DNA from: an uncultured Trueperaceae bacterium
GTDB lineage: Bacteria; Deinococcota; Deinococci; Deinococcales; Trueperaceae
Assembly: GCA_963727505.1 (NCBI GenBank)
Contig: CAVSGP010000009.1
Span: 192,001 to 256,000, forward strand
Direction: 5' to 3'
DNA: 64,000 nucleotides
Position numbers and translations under genes: made by a program. The notes beneath the pieces were generated by a model that was not told the DNA's origin, ran no database searches, and saw only the letters and a list, made by a program, of their open reading frames with translations. Shown piece after piece: positions 24,689 through 60,085 of the stretch. Position 1 is the stretch's first letter; each line of letters starts with the position of its first letter.

Positions 24689-25981
24689 TCAGGGCTGGAT
24701 GCGGCTGCCGTCGCGGGGGAAGGCGCGCGCGAAGCGGACGTTGGGGATGCCCAGCAGCAGGGCCGTGAGGCGCTCGGCGCCGGCCGCGAAGCCGCCGTGG
24801 GGCGGCATGCCGTGGCGGAACACGTCGAGGTAGCCGCGGAAGGCTTCCGGGTCCATGTGCCGCTTCTCCAGCTCTCCGAGCAGCATGGCGTGCTCGTGCA
24901 CGCGCTGCCCTCCGGAGGTGATCTCCACGCCGCGGAACAGCAGGTCGACGCCGCGCGTCAGCTCGCTGTCGGGCTCGGGGTAGGTGTAGAAGGGGCGCGC
25001 CGCCTGCGGGAACTTGGTGACGAAGACGAAGTCGCTGCCGTGCTCCTCGCGCGCCCAGCGGCCCAGCAGGCGCTCGGCCTCGGGGTCGAGGTCCTTCCCC
25101 CCGGTGCGGTGACCGTAGCGCTCGGCCACGAGCTCGCGGGCCTCGAGGAGGGGGATGCGCGGGATGGCCGGGTCCAGCGGGGGCGCCGCCGCCTCCATGA
25201 GCTCGAGCTGGGGAGCGCAGCGCTCGGCCACGCGCGCCATCATCGCCTTGAACAGACCCTCCTGCAGGTCCATCACCTCTCCCTCGTCCCGGATGAAGCC
25301 GAACTCCACGTCGAGCGACAGGTACTCCGCCAGGTGCCGGGTGGTGTGGCTGGGTTCGGCGCGGAACACCGGGGCGACCTCGTAGACACGTTCGTACACC
25401 GCGACCATGATCTGCTTGTAGAGCTGCGGCGATTGCGCCAGGTAGGCGCGCTTGCCGTAGTAATCGACCTCGAAGAGGTTGGCGCCGCTCTCGGCGCCCG
25501 CCGCCACCAGCTTGGGGGTGAAGATCTCGGTGAAGTCGCGGGCATCGAGGTAGGCGCGGAAGGCGCTCACCAGCTCGGCCTGCACCTTCAGCGCCGCCTG
25601 CGCCTTGAGCCCGCGGACGGTCATGTGGCGGTACTCCAGGAGGGTCTCGGGGTTGGCGTGCCACTCCTCCTTGGAGATCTCCACCGGGGGCGGGGTCAAC
25701 GCGCGGCTCAAGACCTCGAGCTCGCTCGCTTGCACCTCCACGCCGCCGGGCGCACGGTCGTTGGCGACCACGCTGCCGCGCACGCGCACGCAGCTCTCGT
25801 GCAACGGGAGCTCGGTGTGCTTGAACACGCACTGCGCCAGGCCGCTCCGGTCGCGCAGCAGCAGGAACTGGATGCCGCCCAGATCACGTCGGTTGTGCAC
25901 CCAGCCCTGCAGGGTCACGGTCTCGCCCACCTGGGTCGGCAGCGCGCGTGTGAGCGTACGCTCGTCGGTCAAGGTCTCCAT
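24689..25981 (-). CDS. aspS: Non-discriminating (archaeal-type) aspartate--tRNA(Asp/Asn) ligase
   Basis: ~430 aa, no GAD insert; GWVHNRRDLGGIQFLLLRD, YLAQSPQLYKQ, FRAEPSHTTRHL.EY, EITSGGQR, GMPPHGGF. Confidence 0.93.
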   Translation of the reverse strand: METLTDERTLTRALPTQVGETVTLQGWVHNRRDLGGIQFLLLRDRSGLAQCVFKHTELPLHESCVRVRGSVVANDRAPGGVEVQASELEVLSRALTPPPVEISKEEWHANPETLLEYRHMTVRGLKAQAALKVQAELVSAFRAYLDARDFTEIFTPKLVAAGAESGANLFEVDYYGKRAYLAQSPQLYKQIMVAVYERVYEVAPVFRAEPSHTTRHLAEYLSLDVEFGFIRDEGEVMDLQEGLFKAMMARVAERCAPQLELMEAAAPPLDPAIPRIPLLEARELVAERYGHRTGGKDLDPEAERLLGRWAREEHGSDFVFVTKFPQAARPFYTYPEPDSELTRGVDLLFRGVEITSGGQRVHEHAMLLGELEKRHMDPEAFRGYLDVFRHGMPPHGGFAAGAERLTALLLGIPNVRFARAFPRDGSRIQP

Positions 25982-25994
25982 CCTACGCTCCTCC

Positions 25995-26027
25995 AAGAAA
26001 AACACCCCGAGGGGAACCTCGGGGTGT
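25995..26027 (-). terminator. Intrinsic attenuator terminator in the aspS leader
   Basis: mRNA acaccccgagg-ttcc-cctcggggtgt then ttttctt, just before the aspS RBS GGAGGAG. Confidence 0.85.
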
Positions 26028-26047
26028 CCAATGGGCCGAACCGCGGC

Positions 26048-26110
26048 CTACGCCCCGAGCCACCTCGCGGGGGAATTGTCGTCAACCAGAAGGTTCCGGG
26101 GCGCACACAT
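26048..26110 (-). CDS. Putative aspS leader peptide MCAPRNLLVDDNSPARWLGA (20 aa)
   Basis: ATG ~10 nt after -10 TAGATT; AAC and GAC GAC AAT codons; stop lies in the antiterminator strand. Confidence 0.7.
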   Translation of the reverse strand: MCAPRNLLVDDNSPARWLGA

Positions 26111-26120
26111 CTTGGGCGGT

Positions 26121-26149
26121 AATCTAGCAGGCGTCCGCGGGCGTGTCAA
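26121..26149 (-). promoter_or_regulatory. Sigma70 promoter of the aspS leader
   Basis: TTGACA-17 nt-TAGATT on the minus strand. Confidence 0.85.
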
Positions 26150-59584: not shown

Positions 59585-60055
59585 ATGCGTCTACCTGGAA
59601 TCGAACGCTACCTGCGGGACCCTCGGCTTCCGCGACCCCACGCCGCCGCCGTGCTGCGTGGCGTGTTCGCCGCGATGTTCCTGGGGCAGATGGTGGTGGC
59701 GCTGGTGCTGGCGGTGGTGGTGCGGCTCGTCAGCGACCTTCACACCAGTCCGAGCCCGCTGCTCGGCTGGGTGCTGGTGCTGCTCTCGATGCTCGAGCTT
59801 CCCCTGGGCGTCGTGCTTGCCGGCATCGCGGGCCGCGGCGACGACCGGCGGCGGGCGCTGTCGGCCGCCCTGCTCGGCGCGGTGATCCTGTCCACACCGG
59901 CATGGTTCGCGGCGCTGGCGCTGGCCACCGGTCAGCGCGGTGCACCGGTCTTCGTCCTGTGGGGCTTGCTGGCGCTGTACTACGGCTTCGGCGTGGCAGG
60001 AGCCGGCCGGCTGGCCGCGCGCGCCGTCGGAGCACCGCCCGCATCGCGGGTCTGA
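59585..60055 (+). CDS. Hypothetical membrane protein
   Basis: ~4 hydrophobic segments. Confidence 0.6.
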   Translation: MRLPGIERYLRDPRLPRPHAAAVLRGVFAAMFLGQMVVALVLAVVVRLVSDLHTSPSPLLGWVLVLLSMLELPLGVVLAGIAGRGDDRRRALSAALLGAVILSTPAWFAALALATGQRGAPVFVLWGLLALYYGFGVAGAGRLAARAVGAPPASRV

Positions 60056-60085
60056 GCTGCAGGCGCGGGAATCGCGCTCGCTCGC

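Follow-up and report, generated by a model that had tools for sequence, protein, structure and literature searches.

A predicted Asp/Asn leader-peptide attenuator upstream of the non-discriminating aspartyl-tRNA synthetase gene aspS2 in Trueperaceae and related families

The trp, his, thr and ilv attenuators of Proteobacteria control biosynthetic operons and use a 1:2 hairpin, and sensing of more than one amino acid is also found among the classical leader-peptide attenuators. Aminoacyl-tRNA synthetase genes are represented by pheST of E. coli, which is preceded by the pheM leader peptide with codons for the cognate amino acid and then by a terminator. T-boxes, in turn, recognise tRNA by direct binding and depend on a long stem I together with the conserved T-box sequence.

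The leader of aspS2 studied here lies in a window of 64,000 nucleotides (the whole stretch of DNA that was analysed) from an uncultured Trueperaceae bacterium. Like the trp, his, thr and ilv leaders it combines a short uORF carrying regulatory codons with mutually exclusive folds between which a stalled ribosome is proposed to decide, although a 1:2 element is not supported here; in the shortest aspS2 leaders, unlike the classical ones, a ribosome on the stop codon alone is proposed to mask the antiterminator strand. With pheST the locus shares an aminoacyl-tRNA synthetase gene under a leader peptide and a terminator, whereas the E. coli system belongs to another phylum, concerns another amino acid and has a Shine-Dalgarno-led uORF. 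The window leader further differs from pheST in that two kinds of codon are putatively sensed, matching both of the tRNAs charged by the enzyme. The T-box leaders of aspS and asnS in Firmicutes act on the same class of target gene and likewise couple uncharged tRNA to read-through of a terminator, but the window yields no T-box in Rfam and its leader is too short for one.

The closest described system is found within the phylum. A start-site map of Deinococcus deserti was published by de Groot et al. (2014, Genome Biol Evol, PMC4007540), who listed 14 putative leader peptides for attenuation in their Table S9, among them Deide_10019 (MFAALANNNDNDPH), assigned to an "Aspartyl-tRNA synthetase, non-discriminating" with transcription starting at the A of the ATG, and for which a role in transcription attenuation is predicted. 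For Deide_10019 that paper reports only the peptide sequence, its transcription start and the gene under its control, with no terminator/antiterminator model, comparison beyond Deinococcus, or test. The earlier note on the present DNA was aware of no described attenuator of this kind for aspS2, which in view of this table entry has to be corrected. A literature search with subscription journals outside its scope returned no other paper on an aspS2 attenuator, and the accessible parts of PMC4833913 and PMC2965389 contain no mention of one.

Deide_10019 resembles the window leader in being short, rich in Asn and Asp, and located upstream of an orthologous gene for a non-discriminating AspRS, and the Deinococcus-like loci of our own sample (L026-L030) encode peptides close to it. 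The window leader is longer (20 codons) and has only the Asp/Asn run in common with Deide_10019. The start codon of Deide_10019 lies at the 5' end of the transcript. For the window leader a start at or close to the ATG is predicted from promoter spacing, the -10 ending 10 nt before the A of the uORF ATG. The antiterminator strand is situated inside the last three codons in the window versus just after the stop codon in the Deide_10019 type. The window element is therefore a diverged member of a predicted family and its mechanism is not new; what is added to a single line of a supplementary table is a terminator/antiterminator model together with comparative evidence.

The gene product is assigned to the archaeal-type non-discriminating enzymes, with scores of 543.5 bits for aspartate--tRNA(Asn) ligase (NCBIfam NF003483, cut-off 353) and 384.7 bits for TIGR00458 (cut-off 368.4), and Pfam recognises in it tRNA-synt_2 together with an OB fold for anticodon binding. 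A convergently oriented gene for thymidine kinase borders aspS2 at its 3' end. On the other side lies an ORF of 129 aa with no NCBIfam or Pfam family match, followed by a gene for a NUDIX hydrolase. The 129-aa ORF occupies the equivalent position in many Trueperaceae and carries a conserved C-terminal FKERL.RP.D..H motif.

The features of the leader are collected in Table 1. The promoter, the 20-codon uORF and the four segments reported in the earlier note are all present on the minus strand at the positions that it had given, and pairings 1:2, 2:3 and 3:4 can all form in the window sequence. The promoter is of the sigma-70 type, with a 17-nt spacer between hexamers that match 10 of 12 consensus positions and a TG before the -10; a promoter scan finds 3 promoter-like sites in 4 kb versus 0.1 expected from shuffles. 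Segment 2 spans codons Leu18, Gly19 and the first base of Ala20, begins 15 nt after the Asn codon, and occupies the stretch between 9 and 3 nt ahead of the stop codon. In the window folds the small linker hairpin is enclosed by the antiterminator helix. The terminator hairpin is GC-rich, with 12 bp and -23.5 kcal/mol, and its U-rich tail reaches 25995.

Table 1. Coordinates of the aspS2 leader and its surroundings in the window.
Feature	Position	Strand	Remark
Upstream ORF, 129 aa	26598-26209	-	
-35 hexamer TTGACA	26149-26144	-	identical in 9/9 same-genus loci
Extended -10 TGcTAGATT	26121..26129 (-10 TAGATT, 26126-26121)	-	kept across the genus
Leader uORF, 20 codons and TAG, MCAPRNLLVDDNSPARWLGA	26048..26110 (ATG 26110, TAG 26050-26048)	-	
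Segment 1 (first reading)	26092..26104	-	pairing with segment 2 possible in the window sequence
Putative sensing codons GAC GAC AAT (Asp10, Asp11, Asn12)	26075..26083	-	
Segment 2 core CUCGGGG, predicted antiterminator 5' strand	26053..26059	-	
Small linker hairpin GGCCG-cgguu-CGGCC	26034..26048	-	folds; kept in the genus
Segment 3, terminator 5' arm	26017..26028	-	covariation and folds
CCCCGAG in segment 3, antiterminator 3' strand	26024-26018	-	
Terminator loop	26016-13	-	
Segment 4, terminator 3' arm (26012-26001) and U-rich tail	25995..26012	-	covariation and folds
aspS2 Shine-Dalgarno GGAGG	25994-25990	-	
aspS2, 430 aa, archaeal-type non-discriminating AspRS	24689..25981 (ATG 25981)	-	

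Judging from sequence comparison, we consider it likely that this element is a working leader-peptide (ribosome-mediated) transcription attenuator of aspS2 that responds to Asp and Asn. Transcription would start a few bases before, or at, the ATG of the uORF, which would lead to leaderless or near-leaderless translation. As long as Asp-tRNA(Asp) and Asn-tRNA(Asn) are plentiful, the ribosome would reach the UAG and cover CUCGGGG in the last three sense codons; with this strand covered, the C-rich strand of segment 3 would pair with the 3' arm of segment 4, and RNA polymerase would terminate at the U-tract before aspS2. If either charged tRNA is short, the ribosome would instead wait at GAC GAC AAU and CUCGGGG, 15 nt further on, would stay free to pair with CCCCGAG once this is made, so that the terminator would not form and aspS2 would be transcribed. 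More AspRS2 would then provide more Asp-tRNA(Asp) and more Asp-tRNA(Asn), of which GatCAB would convert the latter to Asn-tRNA(Asn). A ribosome-mediated attenuator with Asp/Asn sensing codons is what the earlier note had proposed, and the proposal is well supported by the conserved uORF, its Asp/Asn run, the terminator and a covarying 2:3 pairing.

The predicted folds of the window leader follow the position of the ribosome. With the ribosome at Asn12 and the 3' arm still unmade, the MFE structure (-24.8 kcal/mol) consists of the 2:3 helix and the small hairpin, and with the ribosome on the stop codon the terminator alone forms. When all of the RNA is free the terminator wins, and since it is favoured at equilibrium the switch must act kinetically. 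Within the mechanism of the first reading, the part that is not supported is the four-segment scheme of the trp type. The 1:2 pairing is present in the minimum-energy fold of the window (-26.3 kcal/mol), yet across 55 loci segment 2 pairs with upstream uORF sequence at 5.33 of its 7 nt versus 4.74 after shuffling, which is hardly an improvement, and segment 1 is located in the fast-changing half of the uORF.

Relatives of the window locus were obtained in two steps. A protein search gave an orthologue-level match to aspS2 in 40 of 41 related genomes, the exception being a genome of 81% completeness with a paralogue-level match only, and a further 79 loci, the majority with a Trueperaceae label, came from scanning species-representative genomes, for a total of 119. 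Removal of 3 loci cut by contig ends and of 15 duplicates left 101 distinct upstream regions, 87 from Deinococcota and 14 from outgroups with 35-45% protein identity; all counts given below refer to loci of related species and not to independent samples. A locus was scored as possessing the leader if an ATG ORF of 6-45 codons, at most 260 nt from the gene and with at least two Asn or Asp in three consecutive codons, was followed by a hairpin of at least 7 bp. A second rule used structure only: the uORF had to stop 9-38 nt ahead of a hairpin that is followed by a T-rich tail (at least 4 T in 8).

Within the genus, all nine loci retain the promoter, an in-frame uORF with its Asp/Asn run and stop codon, CUCGGGG and the terminator. 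The first half of the uORF diverges freely with the frame intact: indels are of 3 nt and the ATG shifts by 3 nt. Of the Asn and Asp codons pointed out in the first reading, Asn6 and the Asp-Asp-Asn at codons 10-12 are both present in the window, but Asn6 is kept in only three of the nine same-genus loci. In the wider sample, the leader rule finds the element in 72 of the 87 loci from Deinococcota and in 0 of the 14 from outgroups, so that a uORF rich in Asp and Asn is conserved among the relatives examined. In two of the 72 the uORF was probably picked wrongly; in the remaining 70 the stop codon lies 10-35 nt before the 5' arm. A -10-like hexamer, accompanied by a -35, ends 7-11 nt before the uORF ATG in 65 of these 70 loci. 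The commonest distance is 7 nt (31/70), as expected for messages that would be leaderless, and the 10 nt of the window is longer. In the four remaining families of the order the leaders are built on the same principle but are shorter, for instance MRGLLNNDR, MFAAHNNVNDDPC, MKHIFNNRTDDDF and MRVRMLRADDNL, and in some families they comprise just 9-13 codons. The uORF, the Asp/Asn run, the terminator and the 2:3 antiterminator are conserved over five families.

A switch between two folds is supported by the substitution pattern in an alignment of 55 leaders of the Trueperaceae type (53 distinct rows), from which 15 loci of other families were excluded as unalignable. The antiterminator helix CUCGGGG:CCCCGAG (columns 40-46 with 81-87) is paired in 95.7% of the cells over the 53 distinct rows, with double changes at four of its seven pairs, and sliding one strand by a single column lowers the pairing to 66-69%; these pairing values are equalled by at most 1 of 500 shuffles. 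The terminator (columns 78-88 with 97-107) is paired in 86.7% of the cells and has double changes at 9 of 11 pairs, against 57-64% when slid. Both the 2:3 antiterminator and the 3:4 terminator that had been read from the window alone therefore covary across the family. The 15 loci of the other families have an equivalent pairing, between the C-run at the beginning of the terminator's 5' arm and a G-run located 2-7 nt from the first base of the stop codon. There are consequently two layouts, and in both of them, on the assumption of a usual ribosome footprint, the antiterminator strand would be hidden by a ribosome that has reached the stop codon.

It could be argued that the uORF matters, but through translation or through its peptide, i.e., by Shine-Dalgarno access, re-initiation, nascent-peptide arrest or as a small protein. 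The conserved C-terminal residues of the Trueperaceae leaders (R-W-L-G-A and similar) would fit a functional peptide. However, the third positions of the Leu-Gly-Ala codons that bear CUCGGGG are conserved as well and covary with the terminator arm, which indicates a constraint on the RNA and not on the peptide, and the leader peptides of the other families have only the Asp/Asn run in common. Control of Shine-Dalgarno access is suggested by two loci of one genus in another family (L034 and L038), in which the Asn leader and the antiterminator are present and a hairpin of 12-13 bp without a U-tract directly abuts the Shine-Dalgarno sequence; this suggests that these two loci may employ translational control or a termination independent of a U-tract. 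In the window, by contrast, the hairpin excludes the Shine-Dalgarno sequence and ends 6 nt before it, and most loci possess a U-rich tail, as the structure-only rule with its demand for T residues still recovers a uORF in 62 of 87 Deinococcota loci. We therefore regard an effect through translation or the peptide as unlikely.

The same structure-only pick bears on the possibility that aspS2 is expressed constitutively, with the hairpin serving to terminate the upstream gene or acting as a leaky pause site, aspS2 having a separate promoter, and the uORF being a by-product of GC-rich DNA. Open frames are indeed numerous in such DNA and the folding energies are only modestly lower than in shuffled sequences: the whole leader reaches z = -2.24, with 4 of 200 shuffles folding as well, and the shuffling test of the antiterminator is weak in GC-rich RNA, with a median z of -1.16 and 12 of 70 loci below -2. 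The Asn/Asp run, which the structure-only rule does not ask for, is nevertheless found in 61 of the 62 uORFs that it selects. In their last 12 codons Asp (17.5%) and Asn (11.7%) rank first and second among the residues, and the enrichment is confined to the uORF frame, given that the corresponding values for the other two frames of the same DNA are 1.1% and 0.7%. The leader rule likewise separates the 72 of 101 loci from its controls, which gave 2 of 101 for the reverse complement and 3, 3, 0, 1 and 2 for five shuffles. The uORFs of standard geometry end in TAG (58) or TAA (12) in 70 of 70 loci.

A promoter lies between the upstream gene and the hairpin and places the terminator inside the aspS2 transcription unit, and the element is kept where the upstream sequence differs, as it is in three loci of the genus. 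The window hairpin was not among the matches of a simple terminator scan; with the stem extended, only 4 of the 8 bases that follow are T. Of the 573 terminator-like hairpins genome-wide, no other has upstream of it an ATG ORF with three or more Asn or Asp in four codons, and this uniqueness, together with the conservation in relatives, places the leader element beyond chance. Constitutive expression is accordingly very improbable.

That the decision between the two folds is taken by a ribosome-independent RNA switch (a riboswitch, a degenerate T-box or a binding site for AspRS2) is scarcely credible. Such switches likewise use alternative terminator and antiterminator folds, and segment 2 of the window contains UGGC. 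However, other genera lack conservation of this motif, the sequence and length of the region 5' of the Asp/Asn codons vary with the ATG in frame, leaders of 9-13 codons leave no room for a ligand or tRNA-binding fold, and Rfam gives no match to a T-box, leader or riboswitch family. The Rfam search returned six matches at E values up to 10, all of them sub-threshold and none a T-box; the two best, at 23 bits (threshold 112) and 19.3 bits (threshold 49.5), cover mainly the terminator hairpin. On this outcome the T-box reading was dropped.

Fifteen of the 87 Deinococcota loci fail the leader rule. Three of them have a typical leader located further upstream than the 260-nt limit, five Trueperaceae loci have no leader, and the rest are seven others. 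In the five leaderless loci aspS2 starts 3 nt past the stop codon of the upstream gene. A conserved TGCAATAAT at the end of that gene resembles an extended -10 and reads Cys-Asn-Asn in frame. It may represent the promoter of a leaderless aspS2 mRNA, which would mean that the attenuator was lost in this subclade.

In this phylum the non-discriminating AspRS is also an enzyme of asparagine biosynthesis, and its gene carries a putative sensor for both of the charged tRNAs that it helps to make. This putative sensor was kept over five families while its sequence was largely rebuilt, and it provides a candidate for a compact leaderless attenuator where T-boxes are unused for aspS2. We may speculate further that it constitutes an ancient, order-wide switch by which the charging of tRNA(Asn) and tRNA(Asp) feeds back on the enzyme that starts tRNA-bound asparagine synthesis. 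This switch would exist in two layouts, which differ in whether the antiterminator strand falls inside the final codons (Trueperaceae) or immediately past the stop codon (the other four families); as a dual-input attenuator it would match the dual tRNA specificity of its target, the rare AAU would sharpen the response in this genus, and in a phylum mostly without AsnB it would be the main regulator of asparagine supply. To this extended reading as a whole we assign an even chance.

The Asn codon of the leader is AAT in nine of nine loci of the genus, and AAT makes up about 7% of the Asn codons in this genome of 70% GC, a rough figure because the long open frames on which it is based include non-coding sequence. 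Across the 70 leaders GAC occurs 94 times and GAT 64 times, AAC 44 times and AAT 85 times. The genome encodes gatB (502.6 bits), asnS (447.9 bits) and a bacterial-type aspS in addition to aspS2, and asnA was not found in it. The bacterial-type aspS has asnS as its direct neighbour in the same orientation (G000 contig C4, 155916-159799). Four genes of the AsnB family are present, one of which (G000 contig C9, 512049-513620) scores 493.5-494 bits against the asparagine synthase B model (cut-off 499). Owing to this AsnB-like gene AspRS2 is perhaps not the sole route to asparagine, which weakens the physiological logic of the Asn codon. AsnB-type matches are patchy: they occur in 10 of 41 genomes, each of which belongs to Trueperaceae, and the 16 genomes from the other four families have none. 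The composition of the leader was compared with the occurrence of AsnB, and no association is proposed, as Asp-Asp-Asn leaders occur both with and without AsnB.

A scan of this genome found no Asn/Asp leader elsewhere. The more general arrangement of promoter, uORF, terminator and gene was detected in only four cases, namely aspS2, pheS, ilvB and one unknown. The ilvB gene (TIGR00118, 774.9 bits; G000 contig C4, ~59800-60070) has a promoter-proximal uORF, MTSAPYPDAMIHDLQLGPGGSTV, with no obvious run of branched-chain codons, and a terminator. The pheS gene (TIGR00468, 310.8 bits; G000 contig C9, ~701210-701340) has the same layout as aspS2, with TTGACA...TAGACT, the uORF MRNRAVSAFTR containing one Phe codon, and a GC-rich hairpin with T7. 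For D. deserti a PheRS leader peptide is likewise predicted in Table S9 of PMC4007540.
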